The notes below the pieces were generated by a model. That model made no database searches. It saw only the letters and a list, made by a program, of their open reading frames with translations, and was not told the origin of the DNA. Below, in pieces: positions 2,590 through 18,253 of a DNA stretch of 32,000 bases. Positions within the stretch are counted from its first letter, which is position 1, and every line of letters starts with the position of its first letter. Source of the stretch: Mycolicibacterium smegmatis. GTDB taxonomy: Bacteria; Actinomycetota; Actinomycetes; Mycobacteriales; Mycobacteriaceae. The translations under genes were made by a program, and so were the position numbers. The stretch is from positions 2,610,001-2,642,000 of the forward strand of contig NZ_LN831039.1 in assembly GCF_001457595.1 (NCBI RefSeq), given 5' to 3'.

Positions 2590-2651
2590 CCTGACCGTCT
2601 CTGGTCCACGTTCCACATACATACAGACATCCCGACTACCCAGGAGGTTAC

Positions 2652-3872
2652 GTGCCGACACTGCTCGTGGAGGACATCGGACTCCTGCTGCACGGTGACG
2701 CGGCCATCGAACCGGTCCGCGACACCACGCTGCTGATCGAAGACGGTCGCATCGCCGGGATCGGGGTCGACCACCCGAACCCCGATCAGGTCCTGTCCGC
2801 GGGCGGGCTGACCGTGATGCCAGGGCTCGTCGACGGCCACGTGCACCCCACCTTCGGGGAATGGACGCCCGCGCAGAACTCGATCGGATGGATCGGCAAC
2901 TATCTGCAGGGCGGCACCACGTCGATGGTGTCGGCAGGCGAACTGCACATCCCCGGACTGGATTTTTCGAACCTGACCCCCGAGCTGGTGCTCAGCATCG
3001 CGATCACCTCGCGACACACCACGGGCAGGTCACGGCCGTCCGGTGTCAAGGTCGAGGCGGGCACGGTGCTGCTGGTGCCGGGGATGACCGAGGAACACTT
3101 CGACCGCGCGCACCGTGAGGGCATCAAACACCTCAAGTTCATCTTCTACGACTGGAACCGCCTGGGTGACGGCGAGGCCCAGCGGTATGTCGAATGGGCC
3201 CACCAACGCGGCATGACCGTGAAGATGCACTCCGGCGGGGTGTCACGGTCCGGTGCGAGCCGGGTGGCCGGACGCGACGTGGCCGTCGCCGTGCAACCCG
3301 ACATCATCGGCCACATCTCCGGCGGCCCCATCCCGGCACCCGACGACGACATCGTGGGCATCATCGCGGACCTGCCCTCGGCGAGTGTCGAAGTGTGCAG
3401 TTCGATGAACTACCGGGCGACCAAGCTCGTGGTCGACGAACTGTCGGCACGCGGCGAGTTGCACCGCCTGACGTTGGGCACCGACACACCGGGCGGCACA
3501 GGCGTCATCCCGCGCGGGATGCTGCGCAACGTGTGCTTCCTGGCCTCGGTCTGCGGTGTCGATCCGCTGACCGCTGTCGCCGCCGCCACCGGGCAGACCG
3601 CCAAGGCGCACGGCCTGTACACGGGCGTGCTGGTCGAGGGGGCACCCGCTGATCTGGTCGTCCTCGGTCCGATCACGGGGTCGACGGCAGGCGACGCGCT
3701 CGAATCGTTCGCGTTGGGCGACCTGCCGGGCATCGCGGCCGTACTCGTCGACGGGGTGCCACTGGTCAAGACGCGCAGCCAGCAGACGCCACCCCCGAGT
3801 CGCTCGGTGCACTGGCACGGTGATCTGCGCCTGCCGGCCGCGGCGGCGGCACGCAGCGCGGGATGCTGCTGA
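2652..3872 (+). CDS. Amidohydrolase-superfamily metallohydrolase, enamidase-like (cyclic amide/enamide ring opening suspected)
   Basis: GTG 2652 is preceded by AGGAGG at 2642-2647. It has the GLVDGHVHP metal-binding HxH motif, followed by VKMHSGG, IGHISGGP, GTDTPGGTGVIP and LVDGVPLVKTR. The whole-length pattern matches my recollection of enamidase-type amidohydrolases, so this is a family-level call only. Confidence 0.7.
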   Translation: MPTLLVEDIGLLLHGDAAIEPVRDTTLLIEDGRIAGIGVDHPNPDQVLSAGGLTVMPGLVDGHVHPTFGEWTPAQNSIGWIGNYLQGGTTSMVSAGELHIPGLDFSNLTPELVLSIAITSRHTTGRSRPSGVKVEAGTVLLVPGMTEEHFDRAHREGIKHLKFIFYDWNRLGDGEAQRYVEWAHQRGMTVKMHSGGVSRSGASRVAGRDVAVAVQPDIIGHISGGPIPAPDDDIVGIIADLPSASVEVCSSMNYRATKLVVDELSARGELHRLTLGTDTPGGTGVIPRGMLRNVCFLASVCGVDPLTAVAAATGQTAKAHGLYTGVLVEGAPADLVVLGPITGSTAGDALESFALGDLPGIAAVLVDGVPLVKTRSQQTPPPSRSVHWHGDLRLPAAAAARSAGCC

Positions 3873-3907
3873 TCCCCGCCGGAAACCGACACACACAGGA
3901 GTACACG

Positions 3908-5107
3908 ATGACCAACAGCGCTGTCGCACAACCTCGTTCGCAGCGCCGTGGCGCCGACGACCTGATCGGGATCAACGCCGTGCTCAGCGCCGAGGAGCGC
4001 GAGATCCGCGACACCGTGCGCAGCGTCGTCCAGCGCAGGATCAAGCCGCACATCGCGTCCTGGTACGAGGACGGTGAGCTGCCCGCGCGCGAACTGGCCG
4101 TCGAACTGGGCGAGCTCGGCCTCTTGGGCATGCACCTGAAGGGCTACGGGTGCGCCGGGATGTCCGCGGTCGCATACGGATTGGCGTGCCTTGAGCTCGA
4201 AGCGGGCGACTCGGGGATCCGTTCGCTGGTGAGCGTCCAGGGATCGTTGGCGATGTACGCGATCCACGCCTTCGGCAGCGACGAGCAGAAGGACCAGTGG
4301 TTGCCCGACATGGCGAGCGGTCACCGCATCGGGTGCTTCGGCCTCACCGAACCCGACCACGGTTCCGACCCTGCGGGTATGCGCACCAGGGCCACCCGCT
4401 CAGGTGACGACTGGATCCTCACCGGGACCAAGATGTGGATCACCAACGGGTCGGTGGCCGACGTCGCGGTCGTCTGGGCGCGTACCGACGAGGGGATCCG
4501 CGGATTCGTCGTCCCCACCGACACCCCGGGATTCACCGCGAACACCATCAAATCCAAGATGTCGCTGCGCGCCTCGGTGACCAGCGAGCTCGTTCTCGAC
4601 GGGGTGCGGCTCCCCGACAGCGCCAGGTTGCCCGGGGCGACGAGCCTGGGTGCGCCGCTGCGGTGTCTCAACGAGGCGCGGTTCGGGATCGTCTTCGGTG
4701 CGCTCGGCGCGGCACGCGACTGCCTGGAGACGGCGCTGGCCTACGCCTGCTCACGCGAACAGTTCGACCGCCCCATCGGCGGGTTCCAGCTCACTCAGCA
4801 GAAGCTCGCCGACATGACGCTGGAGTACGGCAAGGGATTCCTGCTGGCGCTGCACCTCGGCCGGCAGAAAGACGCCGGTGAGCTGGCCCCCGAGCAGGTC
4901 AGCCTCGGCAAGCTCAACAACGTGCGCGAAGCCATCGAGATCGCCCGCACCGCCCGCACGGTGCTCGGCGCCAGCGGCATCACCGGGGAGTATCCCGTGA
5001 TGCGGCACGCCAACAACCTCGAATCGGTGTTGACCTACGAAGGCACCAGCGAGATGCATACGCTGATCATCGGGCAGGCACTCACCGGCGTCGGCGCCTT
5101 CCGCTGA
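3908..5107 (+). CDS. gcdH: Glutaryl-CoA dehydrogenase
   Basis: ATG 3908 is preceded by CAGGAG. The protein is collinear with GCDH-type acyl-CoA dehydrogenases: GCFGLTEPDHGSDPAGMRTRA, GTKMWITNGSVADVAVVWAR, IRGF, SLRASVTSELVLDGVRLP, LNEARFGI, FQLTQQKLADM, and C-terminal TYEGTSEMHTLIIGQALTG. The track ORF start at 3863 is an upstream extension. Confidence 0.85.
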   Translation: MTNSAVAQPRSQRRGADDLIGINAVLSAEEREIRDTVRSVVQRRIKPHIASWYEDGELPARELAVELGELGLLGMHLKGYGCAGMSAVAYGLACLELEAGDSGIRSLVSVQGSLAMYAIHAFGSDEQKDQWLPDMASGHRIGCFGLTEPDHGSDPAGMRTRATRSGDDWILTGTKMWITNGSVADVAVVWARTDEGIRGFVVPTDTPGFTANTIKSKMSLRASVTSELVLDGVRLPDSARLPGATSLGAPLRCLNEARFGIVFGALGAARDCLETALAYACSREQFDRPIGGFQLTQQKLADMTLEYGKGFLLALHLGRQKDAGELAPEQVSLGKLNNVREAIEIARTARTVLGASGITGEYPVMRHANNLESVLTYEGTSEMHTLIIGQALTGVGAFR

Positions 5108-5145
5108 TCCCGGCACCGTCTGCCCGCCACGACGTCAGGAGGCAC

Positions 5146-7305
5146 ATGGCCGGCCCTCGGAAAGAGGCTCTCGACGACCACTTCACCACGGTCGTCTCGC
5201 AACTGTCGGCGCCTGCGGTTCGCCAGGCGTGGCCCGACACTGCGCTGAGCACCGACATGGCGCTGACACTGTTCGACGCCCAGCTGGCCAGCCGCCACCT
5301 GGACCTCGCGGCCAGGTGGCTGCGGGCACAGGGCAAGGGTTTCTACACCATCGGCTCGTCGGGGCACGAGGGCAACGCCGCGGTCGCCGCGGCCCTGCGG
5401 CTCACCGACCCGGCCCTGCTGCACTACCGCTCGGGCGGGTTCTACGCCGCGAGGGCCGCGCAGGCGTGCGGCACCGACCCGATCCGCGACGTGCTGCTCG
5501 GCGTCCTGGCGGCCACGTCCGAGCCGATCTCGGGTGGCCGGCACAAGGTGTTCGGCCGGCACGATCTCAACGTCATCCCGCAGACCTCGACCATCGCCTC
5601 GCATCTGCCCCGCGCGGTGGGGGTGGCGTTCGCGATCGCGCGTGCCCGCAAGCTCGGCGTGCCGTGTGCGTGGCCCGACGACGCGGTGACGGTGTGCAGT
5701 TTCGGCGACGCCTCGGCGAACCACTCGACAGCCGTCGGCGCGATCAACGCCGCACTGCATGCCGCCTACCAGGGCCTGCCCATGCCGCTGTTGTTCGTGT
5801 GTGAGGACAACGGCATCGGCATCAGCACCAGGACCCCGCGCGGCTGGATCGCCAACGCCTACGGCAACCGACCCGGCCTGCAGTACTTCGCCGCCGACGG
5901 CAGCGACCTGTCCTCGGCGTACGACACCGCGCAGGCCGCGGCGGACTGGGTGCGCAGACACCGCAAACCGGCGTTCCTGCATCTGAGCACCGTCCGGCTG
6001 ATGGGCCACGCCGGCTCCGATTACGAGCCGTCCTACCGTAGGCCCGAGGAGATCGTCGCCGACTTCGACCGCGACCCGGTGCTCAACACCGCGAAAATGC
6101 TTGTCGCACACGGAATTCTGTCACCCGATCAGGCGCTGCAGCGCTATGAGGACAAGCGGGCGGAGGTCATCGACTGCGCGCGTGAACTGAGCGCCGCGCC
6201 GCAACTCGGCAGCGCCGAGGCCGTGCTGGAACCGCTGCGCGAGGCCCTCGACGAGGCGAAAGAGGTGTCGGTCGCTCCGGCCGCGGGCGACACCCCACTC
6301 ACGCTCGCGCTGGCCGTCAACCGGGCGTTGCACGACGTGCTCGCCGAGTATCCCGAGGCCCTGGTGTTCGGTGAGGACGTCGCACGCAAGGGCGGGGTGT
6401 ACGGGGTGACCCGAGGGTTGCAGGCCGCGGCGGGCCCGGCCCGCGTGTTCGACACCCTGCTCGACGAGCAGACCATCCTGGGTCTGGCGCTCGGCGCGGG
6501 CGTGTCCGGTCTGCTGCCCATCCCCGAGATCCAGTACCTCGCCTACCTGCACAATGCGGCCGACCAGATCCGGGGTGAGGGGGCCACGCTTCAGTTCTTC
6601 TCCAACCGCCAGTACCGCAACCCCATGGTCGTGCGGATCGCGGGCTACGGCTATCAGAAGGGTTTCGGCGGGCATTTCCACAACGACAACTCGATCGCCG
6701 CGATCCGCGACATCCCCGGTGTGGTGATCGCGTCCCCGGCGCGTCCCGACGATGCGGCGGCGATGCTGCACACGTGTGTGGCCGCGGCGAAAACCGCTGG
6801 GGCGCTGTGCGTCTACCTCGAGCCGATCGCGCTGTACCACACCAAGGACCTCCACGAGGACGGCGATCAGGGCTGGTTGGCGCCGTATCCGGGGCAGCCG
6901 GTGCCCATCGGGCGCGCCCGCACCTACGGCGACGGGAACGACCTGACGATCCTCACGTTCGGCAACGGTCTGTGGATGAGCCTGCGGGTGGCCCGGCGAC
7001 TCGAACAGCGCGACATCGCCGTGCGGGTCGTGGACCTGCGATGGCTCGCGCCGCTGCCGGTGGACGACATGGCACGCGAGGCCGCCGCGACGGGGCGTGT
7101 CCTCATCGTCGACGAGACCCGGCAGACCGGTGGTGTCGGCGAGGGCGTGCTGGCCGAACTGCTCGCGCGCGGATACACGGGCCGTGTGGAGCGGGTGGCC
7201 AGCGCCGACAGCTTCATCCCGCTCGGCGACGCCGCGTTGCAGGTGCTGCTGTCCGAGGACACCATCGAGGCGGCGGCGGTGAAACTCCTCACCGAGGGAT
7301 CTTGA
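5146..7305 (+). CDS. TPP-dependent 2-oxoacid dehydrogenase E1 component, alpha and beta subunits fused in one 719-aa chain
   Basis: ATG 5146 is preceded by AGGAGG. The N-terminal half has an E1-alpha TPP motif (FGDASANHS...LLFVCEDNGIGIS). The C-terminal half is E1-beta-like (LTLALAVNRALHDVL...LVFGEDVARKGGVYGVTRGL...RVFDTLLDEQTILG...EIQYLAYL). Confidence 0.8.
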   Translation: MAGPRKEALDDHFTTVVSQLSAPAVRQAWPDTALSTDMALTLFDAQLASRHLDLAARWLRAQGKGFYTIGSSGHEGNAAVAAALRLTDPALLHYRSGGFYAARAAQACGTDPIRDVLLGVLAATSEPISGGRHKVFGRHDLNVIPQTSTIASHLPRAVGVAFAIARARKLGVPCAWPDDAVTVCSFGDASANHSTAVGAINAALHAAYQGLPMPLLFVCEDNGIGISTRTPRGWIANAYGNRPGLQYFAADGSDLSSAYDTAQAAADWVRRHRKPAFLHLSTVRLMGHAGSDYEPSYRRPEEIVADFDRDPVLNTAKMLVAHGILSPDQALQRYEDKRAEVIDCARELSAAPQLGSAEAVLEPLREALDEAKEVSVAPAAGDTPLTLALAVNRALHDVLAEYPEALVFGEDVARKGGVYGVTRGLQAAAGPARVFDTLLDEQTILGLALGAGVSGLLPIPEIQYLAYLHNAADQIRGEGATLQFFSNRQYRNPMVVRIAGYGYQKGFGGHFHNDNSIAAIRDIPGVVIASPARPDDAAAMLHTCVAAAKTAGALCVYLEPIALYHTKDLHEDGDQGWLAPYPGQPVPIGRARTYGDGNDLTILTFGNGLWMSLRVARRLEQRDIAVRVVDLRWLAPLPVDDMAREAAATGRVLIVDETRQTGGVGEGVLAELLARGYTGRVERVASADSFIPLGDAALQVLLSEDTIEAAAVKLLTEGS

Positions 7306-7317
7306 TAGCTTGGCCGG

Positions 7318-8553
7318 ATGGCCGAACCGGTAGCACACACGCCCGATCCGACGCGCCCGTTGGCCGGCGTGCGGATCATCGAGATTTCCAGCTTCGTGGC
7401 CGTGCCGCTGGCCGGTATGACGCTCGCGCAGCTCGGCGCCGAGGTGGTCCGCGTCGACCCGATCGGCGGGGCCGCCGACTACCACCGCTGGCCGGTCACG
7501 GACGGCGGCGACAGCATCTACTGGGCCGGTCTGAACAAGGGCAAACGGTCGGTGGCCGCCGACATGCGCTCGCCCGAAGGGCAGCAGGTGGTGCAGAGGC
7601 TCATCGCCGAGAGCGGTGTGCTGATCACCAATGCCGCTGGGCGACAATGGCATTCCTACGAGGAACTCGCGGCGCTGCGGTCCGATCTGATCCACGTCGA
7701 GGTGTCCGGCCGCGCCGACGGCGGCACCGGGGTCGATTACACCGTCAACGCGGCGCTCGGATTCCCGCTCGTCACAGGGCCTGCGGAGGTTTCCACACCG
7801 GTCAACCACGTGCTGCCGGCCTGGGACGTGAGCTGCGGGCTGTACGTGGCGCTCGCGGTGACCGCGGCCCTGCGCCACCGCGACGCCACCGGTGAGGGCG
7901 CCCGCATCAGCGTCCCGCTGGAGAACGTCGCCCTTGCCACGACGGGCAACCTGGGGTTCCTCACCGAGGTGATGATCAACGGTACGTCCCGGGAACGCCT
8001 GGGCAACAGCCTGTTCGGCACGTACGGCCAGAACTTCACCAGCAGTGACGGGGTCTTCTTCATGCTCGTCGCGCTCACGGGGCGGCACTTCCGTGACCTC
8101 ACCGAGGTCACCGGCACCACCAAAGCCGTTGCGGCGCTGGGCGAGGCACTGGGCGCCGATTTCACCGACGAGGGGCAGCGCTACACCCACCGCGACGCGC
8201 TGACCGGTCTGTTCACCCTGTGGTTCAGCGAGCACACCGCCGACGAGATCACCGAGGCGCTTTCGGGCACCTCGGTGTTGTGGGAGCGTTACCGCACCTT
8301 CGCCGAGACGGCAGGCGACCGCCGCGTCACCGACAACCCGCTGTTCACCCCGCTCGACCAGCCGCGGATCGGCCGGTATCTCGCACCGGGCCTGCCGGTG
8401 TCGATCGGCGGGGTGTACCCGGCCGCGGTCGCCGCGCCTGCGCTGGGCGACGACACCGCCGCGGTGCTCGCCGAACACCTCGGACTCAGCGCCGAGAAGA
8501 TCGCCGAGCTCACCGAATCCGGCATCGTCGCAACCGGTTCCGCGCAGAAGTGA
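7318..8553 (+). CDS. Family III CoA-transferase (CaiB/BaiF type)
   Basis: The N-terminus RPLAGVRIIEISSFVAVPLAGMTLAQLGAEVVRVDP...YWAGLNKGKRSV is the canonical family III opening. The gene lies 12 nt after the E1 stop, and its own stop overlaps the next start (GTGA). Confidence 0.85.
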   Translation: MAEPVAHTPDPTRPLAGVRIIEISSFVAVPLAGMTLAQLGAEVVRVDPIGGAADYHRWPVTDGGDSIYWAGLNKGKRSVAADMRSPEGQQVVQRLIAESGVLITNAAGRQWHSYEELAALRSDLIHVEVSGRADGGTGVDYTVNAALGFPLVTGPAEVSTPVNHVLPAWDVSCGLYVALAVTAALRHRDATGEGARISVPLENVALATTGNLGFLTEVMINGTSRERLGNSLFGTYGQNFTSSDGVFFMLVALTGRHFRDLTEVTGTTKAVAALGEALGADFTDEGQRYTHRDALTGLFTLWFSEHTADEITEALSGTSVLWERYRTFAETAGDRRVTDNPLFTPLDQPRIGRYLAPGLPVSIGGVYPAAVAAPALGDDTAAVLAEHLGLSAEKIAELTESGIVATGSAQK

Positions 8554-9359
8554 GCGAACTGCCACGGCTGCTCGACCTCGACGAGCACGACGACGAGGAC
8601 ACCTGGACCGGGCCTGCGAGCGGGCCAGACGGCAAACGCGCATTCGGTGGGCTGCGCGCGGCGCAGAGCCTGGCCGCCGCGGCTCGCACCGTGGGCGACG
8701 ACCGCGCGCCGACCAACATGCACATGCAGTTCCTGCGCGGCGGCGACGCCGGCGAGCCCGCCCGCTACCGCGTGCACCGCGTCTACGACGGACGCACCGC
8801 GTCGGCGCGTCGCGTCGACGCCCACGAGCACGGCCGGTTGCTCACCACGGCCACGGTGTCGTTCGCGACGCCGCTGCCCGGGCCGGAGCACGGCCGCCGC
8901 ACGAGCGTGCCGCACGATCCCGAGGCGTTGCCGCGCACGGGCCCGCCGGGGCCCGCGCCGTCGCTGCCGCTCGACGAGTTCGACATCCGCATCGCCGACG
9001 ACACGGCCGGCGGTGGATTCACGCGGCGGTTCTGGTGGCGGGTCACCACGGCGCTGCCCGACGATGCACTGCTGCACACCATGGTGGCGCTGTACATCAC
9101 CGATCTGTACGGAATCGATCCCGCGCTCGGGGTGCACGGCCTGACGATGCGTTCACGCAGCCACCGCAGCGGCACGACCGATTCGTCGATGTGGTTCCAC
9201 CGGCGGGTGCGCGCCGACGAGTGGAACCTGCTTGAGCAGACGTCACCGGCCGCGGCCCGTGGCCGCGGCATCATCACCTCGAGTCTCGTGCAGCTCGACG
9301 GCAGCGTCGTCGCCACGCTCGTGCAGGAGGGTTTGATGGCCGAGCGGACGACGGACTGA
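8550..9359 (+). CDS. Acyl-CoA thioesterase II (TesB-like, double hot-dog)
   Basis: GTG 8550 overlaps the CoA-transferase stop. TesB-like blocks are present: GGLRAAQSLAAAARTV, MHMQFLRGGD, YRVHRVYDGRTASARRV, ALYITDLY, SMWFHRRVRADEWNLLEQTSPAAARGRG. The 8220..8549 part of the track ORF is an out-of-frame overlap with the CoA-transferase. Confidence 0.75.
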   Translation: MSELPRLLDLDEHDDEDTWTGPASGPDGKRAFGGLRAAQSLAAAARTVGDDRAPTNMHMQFLRGGDAGEPARYRVHRVYDGRTASARRVDAHEHGRLLTTATVSFATPLPGPEHGRRTSVPHDPEALPRTGPPGPAPSLPLDEFDIRIADDTAGGGFTRRFWWRVTTALPDDALLHTMVALYITDLYGIDPALGVHGLTMRSRSHRSGTTDSSMWFHRRVRADEWNLLEQTSPAAARGRGIITSSLVQLDGSVVATLVQEGLMAERTTD

Positions 9360-11822
9360 GCGCCGCGACCACCACGTGCGCGCGGCCGTGACGGCATACG
9401 TCACGGCCACCCCGACGACCAGTGACGCCAGCACCCCGAGGATGCGGTGGTCGCCGAACAGCGGATAGATCTGGTAATGCGTCAGATACGTGTACAGCGA
9501 TGCCTCGGCCAGCACGCCGAGCACCGCGGCCACCGGTGCGGGGCACCGCAGCGCCGGAACCCAGATCAACAACGCGAACCCGGCCAGCACCATGAGTTCC
9601 CGTTGGCTGTCGCCGAAGTAGCCGTACACCCCGATGGCCAGCACCGCGGTGACCGCCACCCGCTGCCACGTGTGGGTGGCCTTCGCGGCGGCCCACCCGG
9701 CGGCGAAGAACCAGAACGCCAACACCGTGAAGCACGCCTGATCGTGCAGGTCGAACGAGATCAGGTTGTAGCGCAAGGCAAGTCCGGCCGCCAGGAACGC
9801 CGCCGCGAACGCGAACGGCTGTCTGCGCTCCAAACGGTCGGCGGCAGGCAGCCAGCACACGGCGGCCAGTGCCACCAGGATCCACACCAGCACCTCGACG
9901 AACCACAGGCGCCCGGCGGTCATGCTGTCGGGCGGTCCCAGAAACTTGTTGGCCAGAAACAGGTTGGTGACGTGGTAGTGGTCGGTGATCAGCAGCGCGA
10001 TCGCGACCCACACGATCGACGGCACCGCGACACCCGCGATGGTCCGGCGCAGATGCCGCGACCGCTGTTCACGTGGCAGCGGTGTCAGGCAGAACCGCCC
10101 GAAGTTGTAACCCGCCACGGCGAGCAGCACGTGCGCGCCGCCCCACAGTTCGAACAGCTCGGCGTGCGAGCCCACGATCAGCACGATCGCGACTGCCCGC
10201 AGCGCGACGCTGGTCTCCACGGTGGCGCCCCAGCGCCGCCGCGGCGCCGCGCGGCGTTCCAGTTCGGACAGCGGCAGCCGGTGCCATTCGGCGGGCAGTT
10301 GCCCGAGGGCCCGTTCCAGACGCACCGACATCGCCACGTACGACAGCGAGTTGCCGCCGAGGTCGATGAAGCTGGCGTCGGGGTCGATGGAAGCCGGGTC
10401 GAGTTGCAGAACCTCGCCGAACAGCGTCCGCAGGTCGGTCACCTCGCCGGCCGGGACCTCGGTGGTGGTCCGGTCGCTGGCGAGTGCCCGCACCGCGGGA
10501 TAGTCGGGCTTGCCCGAGTGCAGCCGTGGCAGTTCGTCGACGACGGTTGTGCGTACGCCCGAGGCCGGGATACGTGCCGCGGCCGCCACCAGCCGCGTGA
10601 CCTCGGCGGCGGACGCCGGTGCGAGCGCGGCCACGGCGACACCGTCGTCGTCGCCGGTGCACAGGGCGGTGATGTTCTGTTCGGCCAGGCCCGATTCGAG
10701 ACGCTGCAGGTCGATGCGCAACCCGAACAGCTTCACGAACCGGCTGCTGCGGCCCACGATCTCGAACAGGCCGTCGGCGCCGCGGCGCGCGATGTCACCC
10801 GTGCGCAGCGCGTCCAGGGTCGCGCCGAGCGCGAGATCGTCGGGACCGTGCGCGTAGCCGAGCATCACGTTGGGCCCGCGGTAGACCAGTTCCCCGGTGC
10901 CCTCGGGCCAGCCGTCGAGCTGTTCGATGTCGAACCGGCCGCCGGGGATCGGTGTGCCGATGGCCTCGGGGCGGGTCAGCGCCAGCTCGGCGGGCAGGTA
11001 CGCCATGCGGGCGGTGGCCTCGGTGGCGCCGTACATCACCACCAGCTGCCAGCCCTGGCGTTGGCCCAGCTCCGCGAACCGCCGCACGCGCTCGGGCGCC
11101 ATCCGGCCGCCTGCCTGCGTGATGTAGCGCAGATGCGGCAGCGACATGTCGTCGAAGCCGATGCGGTCCAGGAGTTCGAACGTGTGCGGCACGCCTGCGA
11201 AGCTCGTGCCGCGGTGCTCGGTGAACAGCTCCCAGAACGCGTCGTCGAGCACCGAATCCTCGGTGAGGATCAGTGCCGCACCCCGCAGGAGGTGGCTGTT
11301 GAGCACCGAGAGCCCGTAACAGTACGACAGCGGCAGAGTCGTTGCCGCCCGGTCGGTTTCGCGGATGCCGAGATACTCGGCTATCGCGGCGGCGTTGCTG
11401 CGCAGGTTTGTGTGTGACAGCCGCACGAGCTTGGGCGAGCCGGTGCTGCCCGACGTGGACATCAGAAGAGCCAGGTCGTCGTGCAGCCGGTGGGCGGGTC
11501 GGTCGTGACGGTGGCGGATCCCGTCGGCGTCGATCACGGTGTCGGGGGAGTAGGTCTGCGTGATCGCGGTGTGGTCACCACCAGGTGCGACCGGCAGCGC
11601 CACGTGGCCGCCGGCCAGCGCGGCGAGGTAGTGCACGACGGTCGCGATGTCGTTGCTGGTCTCCAGAAGCACCAGACGGCGCCCGGTGCCCAGCCGTGCC
11701 GAAGCGTCGGCCACCTGATCGGCGAGTTCGCGGTAGGTCACGTGCCGTTCGGCTGTGATCAGCGCGGTCCGGTCCCCGTGGGCACGCAGCGCGTCGAGCA
11801 GCGCAGATGAAGCCGCGTGCAT
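9243..11822 (-). CDS. Tri-domain fusion: adenylate-forming (ANL) enzyme + phosphopantetheine carrier domain + polytopic acyltransferase-3 (AT3) membrane domain
   Basis: Adenylation motifs are LMSTSGSTGSPKLV, VMYGATEAT, LRTGDIA, GRSSRFVKLFGLRIDL and LHSGKPDY. The carrier motif is FIDLGGNSLSY, with the Ser codon at 10347-10349. This is followed by multiple hydrophobic helices that open with the AT3-type signature LRAVAIVLIVGSH (His codon 10164-10166). I prefer ATG 11822 as the start; the track ORF begins at TTG 11849. Confidence 0.8.
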   Translation of the reverse strand: MHAASSALLDALRAHGDRTALITAERHVTYRELADQVADASARLGTGRRLVLLETSNDIATVVHYLAALAGGHVALPVAPGGDHTAITQTYSPDTVIDADGIRHRHDRPAHRLHDDLALLMSTSGSTGSPKLVRLSHTNLRSNAAAIAEYLGIRETDRAATTLPLSYCYGLSVLNSHLLRGAALILTEDSVLDDAFWELFTEHRGTSFAGVPHTFELLDRIGFDDMSLPHLRYITQAGGRMAPERVRRFAELGQRQGWQLVVMYGATEATARMAYLPAELALTRPEAIGTPIPGGRFDIEQLDGWPEGTGELVYRGPNVMLGYAHGPDDLALGATLDALRTGDIARRGADGLFEIVGRSSRFVKLFGLRIDLQRLESGLAEQNITALCTGDDDGVAVAALAPASAAEVTRLVAAAARIPASGVRTTVVDELPRLHSGKPDYPAVRALASDRTTTEVPAGEVTDLRTLFGEVLQLDPASIDPDASFIDLGGNSLSYVAMSVRLERALGQLPAEWHRLPLSELERRAAPRRRWGATVETSVALRAVAIVLIVGSHAELFELWGGAHVLLAVAGYNFGRFCLTPLPREQRSRHLRRTIAGVAVPSIVWVAIALLITDHYHVTNLFLANKFLGPPDSMTAGRLWFVEVLVWILVALAAVCWLPAADRLERRQPFAFAAAFLAAGLALRYNLISFDLHDQACFTVLAFWFFAAGWAAAKATHTWQRVAVTAVLAIGVYGYFGDSQRELMVLAGFALLIWVPALRCPAPVAAVLGVLAEASLYTYLTHYQIYPLFGDHRILGVLASLVVGVAVTYAVTAARTWWSRRSVRRPLGHQTLLHERGDDAAVELHETRGDDAAATGRGR

Positions 11823-11911
11823 CGGGTCGTGGGGTCCTTTCGCAGGCAAACGGTCTCTAGACCATACCGGCGCTCGCGCGTCGGTGAGCCGCGCCGTTGT
11901 CAGACCGGATG

Positions 11912-14305
11912 TCAGCTCCCGGTGCCAGTGATCCCAGAGACCCCAGTGACCCCGGCCACCCCGGTGCCCTCACTGACATCGAGCGCGGCGCGCACGATGC
12001 TGTCGGTGTCCAGGCCGTGGTAGCGGTACACCTCCTCGAGTGAGCCCACCTGGCCGAACCGTGACACCCCGAGGTTGGTCGCCCGCACCCGCTGGATGTT
12101 CGCCAGGAACGCCAGGGTGTGTGGATGTCCGTCCAGCACGGTCACCAGCGGCAGCGCCCGGTCGGCGGGGAACAGCTGATCGAGGATCCAGGTGTCGGCG
12201 CCGGTGTTCGCAGCGTCGTGACCCTGGCGGGCCTGCCACGCATCGAACAGCAGCCCGGGACTCGTCACGCAGACCACGTCGGCGGGCACGCCCTGCTCGG
12301 TGAGCCGGTCCGCGGCCGCGAGCGCCTCGGGCAGCACCGCGCCCATCGCGGCGATCGTGACGCGCGCGCCTGGGGCGCGGCGCAGCGGGTAGCCGCCCGC
12401 CACCACCTGGCGGCGGCGGCGCTCGCGCGCCGCGGGGTCGGTCGGCACCGCGGCCAGGGACTGATCGACGGGCCGCGTCGAGAGCCGCAGATACGCCGAC
12501 GTGCCGCCGGGGCGGCCCAGCCGGCCCATGCTCGCCAGCAGCGTCCACTCGACGTCGATGGCGAACGCGGGTTCGTAGCTTATGCAGCCGGGTTGTTCGA
12601 TGCCGATCGACGGCGTCTTGATCGACTGGTGCGCGCCGCCCTCGGCGGCCAGCGTGACTCCAGACGGGGTGCCCACGAGGATCGACTGCCCACCGGCGTA
12701 GATGCCGAACGACCACGGCTCCAGCGCGCGTTCGACGAACGGGTCGTACAGCACGCCGATCGGGAAAACTGGCTGGCCCCAACGGCTCCAGGTCGCGCCG
12801 AGCTCACCGAGCAGACCCACCAGGTTGGTCTCGGCGATACCGAGTTCCACGTGCCTGCCGCTGGGGCGTTCGTCCCAGTGCATGATGGTCTCGGCGTCGT
12901 CGGCGAACCAGTTGCGGCGTTCGGTGGCAGACCACACGCCCACCTTGTTCACCCAGCCGCCCAGGTTCGTCGTCGAACTGACGTCCGGGCTCACCGTCAC
13001 CACACGTGCCGCGGCGTCGGGCGCCTCGCGGGACAGGTCCAGCAGCACGCGGCCCAGCGCGGCCTGCGTGGTGGCGGTGCCCTTGGGCGTGCGCCCGATG
13101 TCGCCGGGCACCGCGGGCGGATCGATGGCGGTGATGTCGTCGCGGCTGAGCCGTTGCGCGGCCGCGACGCACAATCGCCCGGCGTCGCTGTCCTGGGCGA
13201 ACCGCTGCCACGGCGCGTTCGGGTCCATACCCAGACGTGTTGCCAGCGCGTCGAACTCGTCGTGCGACAGCAGCGCCGAGTGGTTCTGCGGATGGCCTTC
13301 GGTGGGCAGGCCGTGGCCCTTGACCGTGTAGGCGATGATCACCGTCGGACGGGTGTCGTCGATCTCGCGGTACGCCTGCGTGAGCGTCGCGAGGTCATGG
13401 CCGCCGAGGTTGCGGATCGCGGCGGTGAGCGTCTGGTCGTCGAGATCGGCGATCAGGGAAGCGATCTCGCCGCTGCGCGGGCCGTCACCGGGCAGGCGGG
13501 TGCGGATGTCGCCCGCGGTGCACCGCAGCAGCCGCTGGTACTCGGGATTCGGCATGTCCAGGATGCGTGACCGCAACGCGTCGCCACCCGGCCGGGCGAA
13601 CAGCGACTCCAGCAGCCGCCCGAACTTCACCGTGATCACCTGCCAGCCCGCGGCGTCGAACATCTTCTCCAGACGCCGCGCCGCGATGTTGGGCACCACA
13701 CGGTCCAGGGACTGCCGGTTGAGGTCGACGATCCAGACCACCTCGCCCAACTCGGCGATACCGGGATCCAGGATGGCCTCCCACACCGCGCCCTCGTCGA
13801 GTTCGGCGTCGCCCACCAGCGAGTACTGCCTGCCCGCGCCCGTCGGCCCGTAGTGCGCGTCGACGAACCGCCGCGCCACCGCGCCCCAGATCGGGGCCGT
13901 CGCACCGATACCCACCGATCCGGTGGAGTAGTCGACGGGATCAGGGTCCTTCGACCGGCTCGGATAGGACTGCAGGCCGCCGAACTGCCGCAGCGTCGTC
14001 AGGTACTTCTCGTCGAGCCTGCCCAGCAGGTAGTTCAGGCTGTGCAGCACGGGGGAGGCGTGCGGTTTCACCGAGACCCGGTCACCCGAGCGGAGCTGCT
14101 CGAACCACAGCGCCGTCATGATGGTCACCATCGACGCGCTCGACGCCTGATGGCCGCCGACCTTGAGACCTGAGGTGTTGGGGCGGACCCGGTTGGCGTG
14201 ATGGATCATCGCGGTCGACAACCACAGGACGCGCTGTTCGATCTGTTGCAGCGTGTCCAGTCGTGCGGTGTCGACATCGAGGGTGTGTGCAGCGGTGAGA
14301 GACAT
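11912..14305 (-). CDS. AceE-type (homodimeric) pyruvate/2-oxoacid dehydrogenase E1 paralogue, N-terminally short, with a Gly/Thr/Val-rich C-terminal tail
   Basis: ATG 14305 gives MSLTAAHTLDV... The sequence carries AceE-like blocks: LKVGGHQASSASMVTIMTALWF, HASPVLHSLNYLLGRL, LQSYPS, DYSTGSVGIG, VGDAELDEGAVWEA, and a transketolase-like C-terminal half. The track ORF start at 14398 adds 31 unlikely codons. Confidence 0.8.
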   Translation of the reverse strand: MSLTAAHTLDVDTARLDTLQQIEQRVLWLSTAMIHHANRVRPNTSGLKVGGHQASSASMVTIMTALWFEQLRSGDRVSVKPHASPVLHSLNYLLGRLDEKYLTTLRQFGGLQSYPSRSKDPDPVDYSTGSVGIGATAPIWGAVARRFVDAHYGPTGAGRQYSLVGDAELDEGAVWEAILDPGIAELGEVVWIVDLNRQSLDRVVPNIAARRLEKMFDAAGWQVITVKFGRLLESLFARPGGDALRSRILDMPNPEYQRLLRCTAGDIRTRLPGDGPRSGEIASLIADLDDQTLTAAIRNLGGHDLATLTQAYREIDDTRPTVIIAYTVKGHGLPTEGHPQNHSALLSHDEFDALATRLGMDPNAPWQRFAQDSDAGRLCVAAAQRLSRDDITAIDPPAVPGDIGRTPKGTATTQAALGRVLLDLSREAPDAAARVVTVSPDVSSTTNLGGWVNKVGVWSATERRNWFADDAETIMHWDERPSGRHVELGIAETNLVGLLGELGATWSRWGQPVFPIGVLYDPFVERALEPWSFGIYAGGQSILVGTPSGVTLAAEGGAHQSIKTPSIGIEQPGCISYEPAFAIDVEWTLLASMGRLGRPGGTSAYLRLSTRPVDQSLAAVPTDPAARERRRRQVVAGGYPLRRAPGARVTIAAMGAVLPEALAAADRLTEQGVPADVVCVTSPGLLFDAWQARQGHDAANTGADTWILDQLFPADRALPLVTVLDGHPHTLAFLANIQRVRATNLGVSRFGQVGSLEEVYRYHGLDTDSIVRAALDVSEGTGVAGVTGVSGITGTGS

Positions 14306-14439
14306 GGGTCCTGCCTGAGCGACGGTGAGCAGAAAGCTCATTCCAGTCGAGCACTGACCGCCACTCACGGCAACAACGAGTTGGTTCGGCGGGCACAATG
14401 CTCATCAGTGCGCAATTCGACCCTGAGGGAGTGAGCGTT

Positions 14440-14916
14440 ATGCGCAAGACCGATGCCCGCATCGACGACATCGACGCACGGATCCTGCGCGCCCTTTCGG
14501 CCGATCCGCGCGCCACCGTCGTCGGCCTCGCGGAGGCCACCGGCCTGGCGCGCAACACCGTGCACGCGCGGTTGGCCAGGCTGGAGACCGAGGGTGCGCT
14601 GCGGTCGTTCGAGCGGCGCATCGACCCGGCGGCCCTCGGCTTCCCGCTGACCGGCTACATCATGGTCGTGGTCACCCAGCGGAAACTGGCAGGCATCGCC
14701 GAGGCGCTGGCCGAGGTCCCCGAGGTTCTCGAGGTGCACGGGCTCAGCGGCGTCACCGACCTGCTGGTCCACATCGTCGCCCGCGACACCGACGATCTCT
14801 ACCGGGTCGCCGGGCGGATCCTCGACATCGACGGCGTCGAGAAGACCACCACGAGCCTGGTGATGCGCAGCCTGGTCGATTACCGCGTCGGACCGCTGCT
14901 GAACGGACGCGGATGA
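14440..14916 (+). CDS. Lrp/AsnC family transcriptional regulator
   Basis: ATG 14440 is preceded by GAGGGAG. The N-terminal HTH is IDDIDARILRALSADPRATVVGLAEATGLARNTVHARLARLE, followed by a RAM/AsnC_trans_reg domain (GYIMVVV...VLEVHGLSGVTDLLVHIVARD). It is divergent from the AceE-like gene. Confidence 0.9.
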   Translation: MRKTDARIDDIDARILRALSADPRATVVGLAEATGLARNTVHARLARLETEGALRSFERRIDPAALGFPLTGYIMVVVTQRKLAGIAEALAEVPEVLEVHGLSGVTDLLVHIVARDTDDLYRVAGRILDIDGVEKTTTSLVMRSLVDYRVGPLLNGRG

Positions 14917-15028
14917 GGGCGGCGGGCGTCGTCGAACCCTGAAGTCGGCCGCGCTCGCAACGGTTGGGGTATCTGCGACGTTCATACCTTCTGGGAGCAG
15001 GCGCGAAGCGACGTGAGGGGGACGCGTA

Positions 15029-16437
15029 GTGACCTCAGCAGGACAGGTGGGTGTGGCCTCGGAGGTGTTGGACCGGCTACCGGTCACCAGATGGCACTGG
15101 AGACTGGTGTTCCTGGTCGGCATCGGGACCTTCTTCGACCTCTACGAGGTGTTCCTCGGCGGTGTGCTCGCACCGGTGATGGCAGCCCAGTACGAGCTGG
15201 GCGATCTGGGGAAGGCGATGGTGATCGCCGCCGGTTTCGCGGGGATGTTCGTGGGGGCGAACATCCTGTCGGTGGCGGCCGACCGGTTCGGGCGACGCCG
15301 CGTGTTCATCCTCAACATGGTGCTCTACGCCGTGTTCTCGCTGGCCTCGGCGTTCGCGCCGGATCCCGAGATCTTCGTGATCCTGCGATTCCTGTCCGGA
15401 ATCGGCCTGGGTGCGGAGTTGTGCTCGTCGACTCCTACCTCGCGGAGATGCTGCCGGCACGGGCGCGAGGACGAATGACGGCATGGGCGTACACGATCGG
15501 ATTCCTCGGGGTGCCCATCGCCGCGCTGCTCGGTGGTCGATTCGTCGCCCGCCACGAGATCCTCGGCATCGACGGTTGGCGGTGGTTGCTGATCCTGGGC
15601 GGCCTCGCCGCGGTGTTCGTGCTCGCGGTCCGCTCGATGCTCCCCGAGTCACCACGCTGGCTGGAGATCCGCGGACGCCACGCCGAGGCGCGCGTGGTGG
15701 TCGAATCCATCGTCGAGGCGGTGGGGGCCGACGTAGGACCGCTCGACGTCATACCGGACGGGCGCGGCGGTGCGAGCCGTCACGGTGAAGACGAGGTGCG
15801 GCGCGTCACCGACGTTCTGCGGATCGCGTTCCGCGACTATCGATCCCGCAGCGTCATGCTGATCATCTTCCAGGTGCTGCAGACCGTGGCGTACTTCGGG
15901 TTCGGCACGCTGGCTCCACTCGTGCTGGTGCACAAAGGGTTTCATGTCACCGAGTCGCTGGCCTACTCGGCGCTGAGCTTCGCGGGTTATCCGCTGGGGT
16001 CCCTCGTGTCGGTGCCCCTGGTGGAACGCTTCGAGCGCAAACACCTGATCATCGCCTCGGCGTTGGCGATCGCGGTGTTCGGTGTGGTTTTCGCCGCGGC
16101 GTCGAGTGTCGCGGTGATCGTGGCCGCCGGTTTCCTGCTCACCGCGGTCTCCAACGTGTTCTGCAACGCCTTCCACATCTATCAGGCCGAGATCTTCCCG
16201 ACGGCGATCCGCAGCACCGCCAGCGGGGCCGCGTACTCGCTGTCGCGTGCGGCCTCAGCCGTGTTGCCCTTCATCGCCGTTCCGCTTCTCACGGCGTTCG
16301 GGCCGGTGGTGGTGTTCGCCGGGTCCGCGGTGCTGATCGTGCTGCTGTGTGTCGACGTGGCCGTGCTCGGCCCGCGCAGTACGGGGCTGGATCTGGAGAC
16401 CGTGCAGCAGCCCGTAGGCGTGGCGCCTTACCGCTAG
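15029..16437 (+). pseudogene. MFS transporter (sugar-porter/metabolite:H+ symporter-like) interrupted by a 1-nt frameshift near 15419-15421
   Basis: About 130 codons from GTG 15029 (LDRLPVTRWHWRLVFLVGIGTFFDLYE, DRFGRRRVF, RFLSGIGLGAEL) run into stops. The natural continuation (VLVDSYLAEMLPARARGR... through the remaining TM segments to the stop at 16437) is in the frame of track ORF 15013..16437. At the junction gag-tt|gtg-ctc one base is missing relative to an intact GAEL-VLVDSY reading. Confidence 0.75.
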
Positions 16438-16557: not shown

Positions 16558-17337
16558 ATGAACAACGACCATGCCACCACCCGCCCGTCGATTGTGCGCA
16601 CAGCCTTCGTGGGGGTGACGCTGGCGGCACTCGGCCTCGTGATGGGCGTGGTGGGCCTGCAGGCCGCGGGCACCGCGTCGGCCGCCCCGTCGTCACCGTG
16701 CGCAGATGTCGAGGTGGTCTTCGCGCGCGGCACGTTCGAGGCGCCCGGGGTGGGCGACACCGGCCAGGCGTTCGTCAACGCGCTGGGCGCGCAACTTCCC
16801 GGCAAGAACATCGCGGTGTACGCCGTGAACTACCCGGCGTCCCTTGACTTCAACGACGCCGCCCTGGGAGTGGCCGACGCCGCGCGGGAGGTTCAGGCGG
16901 TGGCTGCCGGTTGCCCGGACACCCAGATCGTGCTCGGCGGGTATTCGCAGGGGGCCGCGGTGGCCGGCTACACCACGAGCGGTGCCGTGCCCGCGGGGTA
17001 CGCGTTGCCCGCGGGCATCACGGGCCCCATGCCGCCCGCCATCGCCCCGCATGTCGCGGCGGTGGTGCTGTTCGGCACCCCGTCCCCGTTCTTCCTCGGG
17101 CTGGTGGACCATTCGGCACCCCCGCTGGTGATCGGGCCGGCCTATGCCGCCAAGACCTTGCAGCTGTGCAACACCGGTGACCCGGTCTGCTATCCGGGCG
17201 GGCTGGACCGGGCGGCCCACAGTGCCTACAAGAGCAACGGAATGGCCGACCAGGCAGCGCAATTCGTCGTCGATCACCTCGGGGCCACGTCGACGGCCAC
17301 ACCGGCCCAGGTGGTGTCGGCCACCACCCATCCCTGA
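16558..17337 (+). CDS. Secreted cutinase-family serine esterase
   Basis: ATG is preceded by GAGGA. There is an N-terminal signal-like hydrophobic segment ending ASAAP, then CADVEVVFARGTFE, the catalytic GYSQGA motif, and the C-terminal CNTGDPVC...H block typical of mycobacterial cutinases. Confidence 0.9.
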   Translation: MNNDHATTRPSIVRTAFVGVTLAALGLVMGVVGLQAAGTASAAPSSPCADVEVVFARGTFEAPGVGDTGQAFVNALGAQLPGKNIAVYAVNYPASLDFNDAALGVADAAREVQAVAAGCPDTQIVLGGYSQGAAVAGYTTSGAVPAGYALPAGITGPMPPAIAPHVAAVVLFGTPSPFFLGLVDHSAPPLVIGPAYAAKTLQLCNTGDPVCYPGGLDRAAHSAYKSNGMADQAAQFVVDHLGATSTATPAQVVSATTHP

Positions 17338-17398: not shown

Positions 17399-18253
17399 TC
17401 AGAACGTGGCGTCTGCGGGCAGTTCGATGTCGGCGACGGCGATGTTCTCCTCGAGATGCGCCACCGAGGACGTGCCGGGGATCAGCAGGATGTTGGGCGC
17501 CAGGCTCAGGGTCGCCGCGAGCGCGATCTGCGCAGGCGTGTAACCGAGTTCGCCCGCCAGCTTCTTCACCGTCGGGTTGCCGAGCACCGGGTTGTCGGGC
17601 ACGAATGCCGATCCCAGCGGGAAGAACGGCACGAACGCGATACCGCGTTCGGTACACAGGTCCAGGACGGGCTGCGACGTGCGGTCGGCGATGTTGTAGG
17701 CGTTCTGCACGCACACGATGTCGGTGCGCTGCAACGCGATCTCCAGATGCTCGCAGACGATGTTGCTCAGCCCGATACCGCCGATCAGGCCTTCGTCGCG
17801 CGCGGCGATCATCGCGTCGAGTTGCCGCTCGAACAGTTCGCGATTGACCGCGCGGCCGTCGGGGTCGTCGAACACGCGCAGGTTCACCGCGGCCAACTGG
17901 TCCACTTTCAGTGTGTGCAGGTTGGTCTCGATGTCCTTGCGCAGCTGTTCGGGTTCCTGTGCGGGCAACCAGTTGGCCTGATCGTCACGCGTGCCACCGA
18001 CCTTGCTCACGATGGCCAGATTCTCGGGGTAGGGGTGAAGGGCCTCGTAGATCAGTTCGTTGGCGACGTCGGGCCCGTAGAACTGCGCGGTGTCGATGTG
18101 GTCCACGCCGAGTTCGATCGCGCGCCGCAACACGGCGATCGCCTGGTCGTGGTCGCGCGGTGGCCCGAACACATGGGGGCCCGGCAACTGCATGGCGCCG
18201 AACCCGACGCGATGGACGGTGAAAGATCCGAGGGCGAACGTCGACGCACCCAT
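17399..18253 (-). CDS. Aldo/keto reductase family oxidoreductase
   Basis: ATG 18253 is preceded by AAGGAG. AKR motifs are present: VGFGAMQL, AIELGVDHIDTAQFYG, IVSKVG, GLSN, QNAYN. Confidence 0.9.
   Translation of the reverse strand: MGASTFALGSFTVHRVGFGAMQLPGPHVFGPPRDHDQAIAVLRRAIELGVDHIDTAQFYGPDVANELIYEALHPYPENLAIVSKVGGTRDDQANWLPAQEPEQLRKDIETNLHTLKVDQLAAVNLRVFDDPDGRAVNRELFERQLDAMIAARDEGLIGGIGLSNIVCEHLEIALQRTDIVCVQNAYNIADRTSQPVLDLCTERGIAFVPFFPLGSAFVPDNPVLGNPTVKKLAGELGYTPAQIALAATLSLAPNILLIPGTSSVAHLEENIAVADIELPADATF

Follow-up and report, generated by a model that had tools for sequence, protein, structure and literature searches.

What does a single polypeptide that joins an adenylation domain, a phosphopantetheine (Ppant) carrier domain and a membrane acyltransferase do for a mycobacterium? 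The question is raised by an open reading frame (ORF) on the minus strand of Mycolicibacterium smegmatis, at positions 9243..11849 of the stretch analysed here (32,000 nucleotides of contig NZ_LN831039.1, positions 2,610,001 to 2,642,000; hereafter the window). Its product belongs to the ANL, PP-binding and acyltransferase-3 (AT3, Acyl_transf_3) families at once, and it has the layout of a nonribosomal peptide synthetase (NRPS)-like A-T-X protein, with adenylation (A) and carrier (T) domains followed by a new kind of X. We favour, with a probability of roughly 55%, the reading that it is a self-loading NRPS-like membrane acyltransferase in which X is an AT3 domain, that the family is linked to iron, and that the copy in the window has diverged from that setting.

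Read from its first TTG (11849) to the stop codon (9243-9245), the ORF encodes 868 amino acids (aa) and has a coding-type composition, with a GC content at third codon positions (GC3) of 0.87. Residues are numbered from this TTG, so that, for example, the codon of Ser501 lies at 10347-10349 and that of His562 at 10164-10166. The true start is probably the ATG at 11822, which would give 859 aa, because this codon has an AAAGGA ribosome-binding site, is kept in the locus of the closest relative (L085), and yields a product with the length of a homologue (P0001, 859 aa) that is 98% identical to the window protein. An inverted repeat, GGTCT-N2-AGACC, occurs just upstream of the start (~11853-11864) and is also kept in L085. 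Pfam reports AMP-binding, PP-binding and Acyl_transf_3 in this order, each over its curated cut-off, which supports the ORF and three-domain order that an initial annotation had described from the letters alone; the motif and codon coordinates given there, including those of Ser501 and His562, all proved exact on recheck.

The fusion is real and widespread. A word-indexed homologue search with the window protein returned more than 100 full-length homologues with the same domains (64-98% identity), all from Mycolicibacterium or Mycobacterium. A separate HMMER search with the carrier and AT3 part (aa 470-835) was run exhaustively against 1.84 billion cluster representatives (clusters at 50% identity) and matched 1599 clusters at E<=1e-3, of which 402 reached E<=1e-30. 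Full-length matches among the best 150 of these 402 clusters are mostly 810-950 aa long and match at ~470-830, which is the same fusion. Split versions, in which the A domain would have its own gene and carrier and AT3 would stay joined, were considered and rejected; the short matches mostly begin inside the A domain or lie on ~1.4 kb contigs, and are fragments. Judged by these matches, this AT3 subfamily seems to exist almost only in fused form. A scan of one genome per species shows that at least 593 species encode a relative, and the best 80 of these are all Actinomycetota. Represented genera and groups are Streptomyces, Micromonospora, Salinispora, Actinoplanes, Actinomadura, Couchioplanes, Jiangellales, Nocardioidaceae, Antrihabitans and Mycobacterium. 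The gene is a single ORF of 834-1078 aa in 81 of 83 independent genomic loci and recurs in hundreds of clusters. A frameshift, assembly or sequencing artefact is thereby excluded, and with it the concern in the initial annotation that a stop or frameshift might separate two genes. Conservation was assessed in a full aligned set of 255 sequences and in a distant set of 141 that share <60% identity with the window protein; across ~250 sequences, all three modules conserve their catalytic residues jointly.

A search of the full-text literature, outside which subscription-only papers lie, turned up no description of the architecture or of its link to iron, set out below; the earlier statement that no characterised example is known holds for the searchable literature. 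Under-annotation of the AT3 domain, whose scores straddle the gathering threshold, is probably why the architecture has been overlooked. An Acyl_transf_3 annotation is absent in about a third of the close homologues listed, which are labelled only 'AMP-binding protein', 'AMP-dependent synthetase' or 'NRPS', and diverse members carry only the label 'AMP-binding protein'. The family also matters for annotation, since its proteins now bear labels such as 'AMP-binding protein' or 'NRPS' alone.

The A domain (~aa 10-465; 10455..11822, on the minus strand like all features of the protein) is defined by Pfam AMP-binding (PF00501; E 3.3e-47, 161.6 bits against a cut-off of 29.9), by NCBIfam and PDB relatives and by conservation in the family. 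Its motifs are the A3 P-loop LMSTSGSTGSPKLV (11424-11465; core STSGSTGSPK, aa 131-140), YGATE (A5; aa 273-277, 11019-11033), LRTGDIA (A7; 10788-10808, with TGD at aa 350-352), GRSSRFVKLFGLRIDL (A8, GRxxRFVK; 10707-10754, with GRSSRFVK at aa 366-373) and HSGKPDY (A10; 10500-10520), which contains the catalytic Lys447 (codon 10509-10511). Lys447 is present in all 141 distant members, and STSGSTGSPK, YG(Q/A)TEA, TGD and GRxxRFxK are invariant or nearly so among them. In the A4 region, PLSYCYGLS (11307-11333) places YCYGLSV where amino-acid-activating A domains have FDxS, and (H/S)YCYGLSV is invariant at this position throughout the family. Two alignments with LgrA put Cys177 or Gly179, and never Asp, at the equivalent of Asp235. 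The proposal that the Asp that binds the alpha-amino group is absent is thus borne out by both alignments and by the invariance of YCYGLSV. Because this Asp is replaced within an invariant motif, an alpha-amino acid is an unlikely substrate, and a carboxylic acid without an alpha-amino group appears more likely.

The closest relatives of the A domain in the PDB and NCBIfam are NRPS A domains, oxalate/malonate-CoA (coenzyme A) ligases and carrier-loading stand-alone A domains. In the PDB they comprise the LgrA NRPS A domain (1e-31), oxalate-CoA ligases (2e-24), VinN-type carrier-loading stand-alone A domains (5e-24), MenE, and DltA (7r27, 2e-17). The best NCBIfam model, the exosortase-A-associated acyl-CoA ligase TIGR03098, matches far under its cut-off. 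By these comparisons, the A domain is a distinct ANL subfamily.

The order of the modules recalls Dlt D-alanylation, in which adenylation by DltA is followed by loading of the Ppant carrier DltC and by the action of DltB, an MBOAT protein, with the group being passed across the membrane. The likeness ends with the order of the chemistry. The Dlt system consists of separate proteins, with an MBOAT protein for the membrane step, a DltA Asp for the alpha-amino acid, and DltD/DltX, whereas the M. smegmatis protein has none of these; its membrane step is an analogue and not a homologue. Pfam finds no MBOAT match in the window protein, whose membrane domain matches Acyl_transf_3 instead. The suggestion of a Dlt-like machine therefore does not extend to kinship: the membrane domain is AT3 and not MBOAT, the A domain is not DltA-like, and no DltD/DltX-type partner is conserved nearby. 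It is also very unlikely that the protein is a true functional analogue of Dlt that puts an amino acid such as D-Ala on a teichoic-acid-like or other anionic envelope polymer and so tunes surface charge. Adenylation, carrier and polytopic membrane transferase do follow one another as in DltA/DltC/DltB, DltA is among the PDB relatives, and AT3 and MBOAT enzymes have converged on identical peptidoglycan O-acetylation jobs. Against this stand the missing Asp at the alpha-amino position, with invariant YCYGLSV where DltA and NRPS domains have FDxS, and a match to DltA that is weaker than those to NRPS A domains and oxalate-CoA ligases. No DltD/DltX-like gene occurs in the window or in 85 loci of relatives, and a less negative surface would be the opposite of what cation capture needs in iron starvation.

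The carrier domain (~aa 470-535; 10245..10442) is recognized by Pfam PP-binding (PF00550; E 3.6e-10, 40.4 bits against a cut-off of 20.8, aa 473-517). It forms helices at 473-481, 501-515 and 527-533 in an AlphaFold2 (AF2) model, with Ser501 opening the helix 501-515. This Ser, the Ppant attachment site, lies in FIDLGGNSLSY (10338-10370) and is present in 141/141 distant members; the motif reads LGGNSLSY here and LGGDSLSY in most of the family. A short basic linker, PRRRWGATVE (aa 536-545; 10215..10244), connects the carrier to the first transmembrane helix (TM1), and the spacing from Ser501 to Arg551 in the family is constrained (median 51 residues, interquartile range 50-54).

The AT3-type membrane domain (aa 546-830; 9360..10214) is supported by Pfam, AF2, hydropathy and conservation. 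Acyl_transf_3 (PF01757) matches with E 8.8e-10 and 38.6 bits (cut-off 31), and aa 550-820 cover positions 7-324 of its 326. The AF2 model of the membrane domain alone has 10 long helices, with a mean predicted local distance difference test (pLDDT) of 82 and a predicted template modelling score (pTM) of 0.80, and hydropathy also gives ten helices. Lys and Arg residues are concentrated in even-numbered loops and at both ends of the domain, which indicates an N-in/C-in topology; together with hydropathy, this distribution puts the carrier domain in the cytoplasm and directly before TM1, a point that the initial annotation had asked to be checked. TM1 contains the AT3-type signature LRAVAIVLIVGSH (10164-10202), in which Arg551 (codon 10197-10199) starts an R-X10-H motif that ends at His562. 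A second invariant motif, GGAH, holds His573 (codon 10131-10133). Arg551 and His562 occur in 141/141 distant members and His573 in 140/141, and the Arg551-to-His562 spacing is 11 in 255/255 aligned sequences. Before TM3 the RxxR motif is R593-E-Q-R596, which opens the helix 593-621 (R593 in 110/141 and R596 in 126/141 distant members). R585, W649 and S784 are also invariant in the membrane domain, and Glu652 of WFVE is kept in 136/141 distant members. R/K-X10-H in the first helix and RxxR at the third are essential donor-binding motifs of AT3 enzymes (PMC9558356, PMC9833829). The window protein keeps every residue that is invariant in the family. Only the C-terminal tail (aa 831-868; 9246..9359) is non-conserved, and it is modelled by AF2 with low confidence.

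These features align the protein with known AT3 enzymes (OafA/OafB, OatA, Oac, SucT, TmaT), with which it shares the 10-helix domain, R-X10-H in TM1, RxxR before TM3, an FFxxSG-like motif in TM2 (AVAGYNF here), N-in topology and a donor that comes from the cytoplasm. It differs from them in its fused N-terminal A-T didomain, known fusions being with a C-terminal SGNH domain or with alanine racemase. Further differences are a donor that is presumably carrier-bound and the lack of an extracytoplasmic partner domain. The subfamily is also very divergent, with near-threshold Pfam scores and only ~1600 clusters (at 50% identity) detectable. AT3 reviews and fold papers mention no fusions other than those with SGNH and racemase domains and favour acyl-CoA over acyl carrier protein (ACP) donors, and the field regards acyl-CoA as the AT3 donor (PMC9558356, PMC9833829, PMC12423673). 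The M. smegmatis protein is thus a new kind of AT3 fusion, presumably with a new kind of donor. Among long family members, one metagenomic protein (P0153, 1121 aa) continues beyond its AT3 domain into a PhoD-like phosphatase domain at the C-terminus, the only such case; this might point to an acceptor with phosphodiesters (teichoic-acid-like), or gene calling might have joined two genes.

The strongest clue to the function of the family is its link to iron, which the initial annotation had no means of seeing. Genes were called in 80 non-redundant loci and their neighbours clustered, and importer presence was determined by tblastn in 85 loci. The conserved neighbour is an ATP-binding cassette (ABC) importer that consists of an SBP_bac_6 lipoprotein as substrate-binding protein (SBP), a fused double permease, and an ATPase with a TOBE/FbpC-like domain. 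Streptomyces-type loci have a divergent arrangement, with the SBP gene at position -1 and the permease at -2 relative to the family gene. Of the 85 loci, 57 have the SBP and permease within the fetched flanks, and every one of the 33 Streptomyces loci is among these 57. M. boenickei (L084) and Mycobacterium sp. MMS18-G62 (L087) instead have the three importer genes directly upstream on the same strand, where the ATPase stop overlaps the start of the family gene by 4 nt (co-operonic), and the same ATPase junction is found in a truncated contig (L003) of a metagenome-assembled genome. The FbpA/SfuA/YfuA-type importer genes lie at 2367-6004 in L084, 3364-7004 in L087 and 2615-6261 in L010. Because the association occurs in two different arrangements, it points to a functional link and not to inherited synteny. 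The SBP matches the solved ferric-binding proteins YfuA, SfuA, HitA and FbpA with E values down to 1e-129. SBPs of the FbpA/SfuA type bind bare Fe3+ and not siderophores. The mycobacterial SBP is strikingly close to enterobacterial YfuA/SfuA (E 1e-129), a closeness that may reflect horizontal transfer.

Predicted regulation concurs with this context. Matches to the 19-bp actinobacterial IdeR/DmdR1 iron box, TTAGGTTAGGCTAACCTAA, were scored by mismatches. Of 45 shared intergenic regions, 40 have a match with <=5 mismatches, and random stretches of equal length typically give 9-11. Boxes at this threshold occur between -400 and +150 of the family gene's start in 57/80 loci, and their position peaks sharply, with the box beginning 28 nt before the start codon. 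With <=4 mismatches, 23 boxes fall in the 4.7 kb that make up the -60..0 intervals, 30 in -250..-61, and 9 in the other 1.19 Mb, so that box density in -60..0 is ~650-fold higher than in the remaining 1.19 Mb. Boxes immediately upstream of family genes were recorded across loci L005-L082 (e.g., L010, 6262-6533), and in Streptomyces another box lies close to the SBP gene. In L084 (2329-2347) and L087 (3316-3334), boxes with 4 mismatches precede the SBP gene by ~20-48 nt. Loci without adjacent ABC genes can have the proximal box as well, examples being Salinispora (L019), Marmoricola (L049) and Jiangellaceae (L057 and L075). From these data we predict repression of the family genes by IdeR/DmdR1 and a coupling of the family to Fe3+ import that does without siderophores. 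No gene of this kind appears in the table of the S. coelicolor DmdR1 regulon. This iron connection is new information and makes the family experimentally tractable. As a separate observation, a haemophore-type gene (MHB, PF16525; 2591-2995) adjoins the fbpA-like gene of L087 in divergent orientation, a second iron/haem-acquisition gene in that locus.

In the mechanism that we propose, the cytoplasmic ANL domain would adenylate a free carboxylic acid, probably not an alpha-amino acid, and the acyl group would be loaded as a thioester on the Ppant arm of Ser501, which a phosphopantetheinyl transferase would have installed. Tethered ~50 residues before Arg551, the carrier would sit at the cytoplasmic mouth of the 10-helix AT3 pore. 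Acyl-CoA enters the pore of free AT3 enzymes via its phosphopantetheine segment (PMC9558356, PMC9833829), and the carrier arm would enter where those enzymes take this chemically identical pantetheine arm. The thioester would then reach the region of TM1 His562 and GGAH His573, and the acyl group would pass to an acceptor that lies within the membrane or past it. That the acid must first be activated with ATP suggests one that has no CoA pool, and the lack of special-acid biosynthetic genes conserved nearby suggests a common metabolite. In most Actinomycetota the gene would be IdeR/DmdR1-repressed and is genomically coupled to the FbpA/SfuA-type ferric-iron ABC importer; for these two reasons the family enzyme most likely serves iron acquisition under iron starvation. 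In the window the copy would be catalytically intact, to judge from its residues, and the iron box and ABC genes would have been replaced by an AsnC regulator and an E1-like gene. Covalent linkage of activation, carrier and membrane transfer, as first described, is borne out, and the co-conservation of the three modules in ~250 sequences fits the CoA-independent, carrier-fed AT3 step that we infer. The mechanism put forward in the initial annotation agrees with everything computed here.

A bolder form of this reading, which we regard as a tentative and rather doubtful extension, would make the family the first AT3/TmAT enzymes with a donor other than acyl-CoA and the missing outward-facing partner of siderophore-independent FbpABC-type uptake. 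The enzyme would prepare its donor itself on the fused carrier and, under IdeR/DmdR1 control, would attach an acyl group that binds metal to the cell surface, or set it free there; a small di- or hydroxy-carboxylate without a CoA pool is one example. This group would hand Fe3+ to the lipoprotein FbpA. Two known systems offer partial parallels. In mycobactin lipidation by FadD33(MbtM)-MbtL-MbtK, IdeR-regulated adenylation, carrier and acyltransferase steps likewise serve mycobacterial iron acquisition. Those steps fall to three separate soluble proteins, with MbtK a GNAT enzyme and a siderophore lysine as acceptor, and there is no membrane pore. AimS of Acinetobacter baumannii is a stand-alone AT3 protein that is induced by Fe/Zn starvation (2026 preprint, PMC13345540). 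It needs its TM1 His and RxxR and leaves cellular metal content unaffected (PMC13345540). As a Gram-negative, stand-alone protein that lacks an A-T didomain, it is a loose precedent for a metal-responsive AT3.

AT3 proteins are the main bacterial route for moving acyl groups across the membrane, and a large, conserved family with adenylation and carrier domains of its own would open AT3 chemistry to acids for which there is no pool of CoA thioester. It would also be a natural, compact genetic system for asking by what route a pantetheine arm gets into the AT3 pore. The predicted IdeR/DmdR1 control and the linkage to an FbpA/SfuA-type Fe3+ importer suggest that a component of iron acquisition has gone unrecognised, one that occurs in Streptomyces, Micromonospora, Salinispora and many of the fast-growing mycobacteria.

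Several observations weigh against this interpretation, the first group concerning the membrane domain. The AT3 assignment rests on a Pfam score that is borderline; diverse family members score 24-42 bits against the cut-off of 31, and some fall under it. A Foldseek search matched no solved structure, and the only structural match was an unnamed 637-aa viral model (TM-score 0.58). An hhalign comparison with Oac of phage Sf6 was not significant, and its single aligned stretch superimposes R-X10-H and the TM2 'SG(Y)'. With a pTM of 0.50, the full-length AF2 model leaves the geometry between domains undefined, and transfer in cis is something that we infer. The borderline scores and the lack of a significant match to solved structures would suit a membrane region that is a mere anchor or a degenerate AT3 relic without transferase activity. 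Such a role is highly improbable given that hallmark residues are invariant over ~40-100% identity (R-X10-H in 255/255, GGAH, Glu652 in 136/141), which argues for catalysis rather than anchoring.

A second point concerns the donor. Arg551 is the equivalent of OafB R14, which is modelled to bind the CoA 3'-phosphate, and an invariant Arg at this place could be a sign that the domain still binds acyl-CoA. In that case the AT3 domain might keep an acyl-CoA donor, with the A-T didomain presenting a carrier-tethered hydroxy or amino acid as acceptor, or the didomain might serve a partner in trans and the fusion only localise it. Every AT3 enzyme tested in vitro uses acyl-CoA (PMC9558356), and the conserved Arg accords with such a donor. 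We nevertheless consider this arrangement unlikely, since, seen from the cytoplasm, the catalytic His of the AT3 fold is far down the pore or past it, so that CoA and a tethered acceptor are hard to fit from one face. The subfamily is also essentially only found fused, with a constrained distance between Ser and TM1, and no condensation or thioesterase partner is conserved near the family loci. Aas and LplT-Aas, in some cases with an MFS transporter, show that an ANL domain can be fused to an acyltransferase that is associated with the membrane and draws its acyl group from a carrier. The A domain of the M. smegmatis protein resembles their models PRK08633/PRK06814 with E values of 1e-28 to 1e-30 (NCBIfam). 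Aas differs from the M. smegmatis protein in its PlsC-type acyltransferase, separate ACP, long-chain fatty acids and lysophospholipids, and reversed domain order.

A third point is that the neighbours in the family loci include no conserved special-acid biosynthesis gene and no extracytoplasmic partner (e.g., SGNH), which leaves substrate and acceptor unconstrained. Acylation of envelope glycans, as first proposed, is retained only as one possible outcome. No envelope-glycan genes are conserved nearby, which would be compatible with release or secretion of a product, in the manner of Pls, in which the membrane domain off-loads the acyl group to a small acceptor (water, an alcohol, an amine or another monomer) and yields a secreted or membrane-associated molecule or oligomer, such as an iron chelator acting alongside the Fe3+ importer. 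NRPS-like synthetases of the A-T-membrane type are known, for epsilon-poly-lysine and delta-poly-ornithine (PMC10522769), some AT3 enzymes acylate small molecules (Asm19 and CmmA; PMC9558356), and the iron-box/FbpABC setting would fit chelator production. Pls/PosA-type synthetases, moreover, have A, T and an integral-membrane catalytic domain in one polypeptide with the NRPS-like A-T-X order (PMC10522769), as the M. smegmatis protein does. Their C-terminal domain, however, is ~730 aa long, with three pairs of TM helices (six in all) set apart by three soluble beta-helix regions of ~180 aa, and it polymerises cationic amino acids. The membrane domain studied here has ~290 aa and ten helices of the AT3 type, with no soluble inserts, so the protein is not a Pls. 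In addition, the Asp typical of amino-acid activation is missing from its A domain. The preference of FbpA/SfuA-type SBPs for bare Fe3+ also speaks against a chelator, as does the lack of monomer-biosynthesis genes conserved near the family loci. Product release is possible on this evidence, if on the whole improbable, and we continue to prefer a carrier-fed AT3 transferase.

The last point against our reading is the window itself, whose 32 kb contain no iron box with <=6 mismatches and no ABC genes, so that an iron role for this copy would follow from its relatives only. Directly upstream of the fusion gene, 89 nt before ATG 11822, lies a divergent AceE-type, thiamine diphosphate (ThDP)-dependent E1-like gene (11912..14398, minus strand), which is probably co-transcribed with the fusion gene. 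It is a paralogue of homodimeric-type AceE, with 214 bits against the NCBIfam aceE cut-off of 860. An Lrp/AsnC-family regulator follows in divergent orientation (14398..14916, plus strand) and is also present in L002 and L085. The E1-like gene was inserted between this regulator and the fusion gene in this lineage only; it is found in the window and in L085, a 90%-identical relative, and is absent in L001, L002, L083, L084, L086 and L087. M. goodii (L002) has the AsnC gene and no E1 gene, and other mycobacteria have DUF1206, a sulfatase or nothing at this position. The arrangement in the window is read as a lineage-specific replacement of an ancestral fbpABC/iron-box 5' flank, in which the Lrp/AsnC regulator is a candidate controller of the E1-like/A-PCP-AT3 unit (PCP being the carrier domain). 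Regulation of the window copy has diverged on this reading, and perhaps its role as well. The E1-like gene was also considered as a supplier of substrate for the family and rejected, being absent in six other mycobacterial and all non-mycobacterial loci.

Further upstream, beyond the AsnC regulator, are an MFS transporter gene (15013-16437, plus strand), a cutinase gene (16558-17337, plus strand) and an aldo/keto reductase gene (17399-18253, minus strand). The set has no link to the family elsewhere and also flanks the M. goodii orthologue (L002). On the other side, the 3' end of the fusion gene overlaps tail-to-tail, by 117 nt (9243-9359), a convergent gene for a TesB-like acyl-CoA thioesterase II (8550..9359, plus strand). 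An equivalent convergent overlap of ~115-130 nt exists in L001, L002 and L084-L087, which are most of the mycobacterial loci examined. The thioesterase is syntenic with the fusion gene in most of these mycobacterial loci, with a family III CoA-transferase next to it. Both were weighed as partners and set aside, since mycobacterial synteny is all that supports them and they belong to a convergent, catabolic cluster. The thioesterase is the last gene of this CoA-transferase/E1/acyl-CoA dehydrogenase cluster, whose other genes (1-8553, plus strand) encode a molybdopterin-binding subunit that is cut at the window start, a [2Fe-2S] subunit, an amidohydrolase, an acyl-CoA dehydrogenase, a fused alpha/beta E1 dehydrogenase (807 aa) and the family III CoA-transferase. 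The nearest model to this CoA-transferase is 2-methylfumaryl-CoA isomerase, with 402 bits, under the cut-off of 725.

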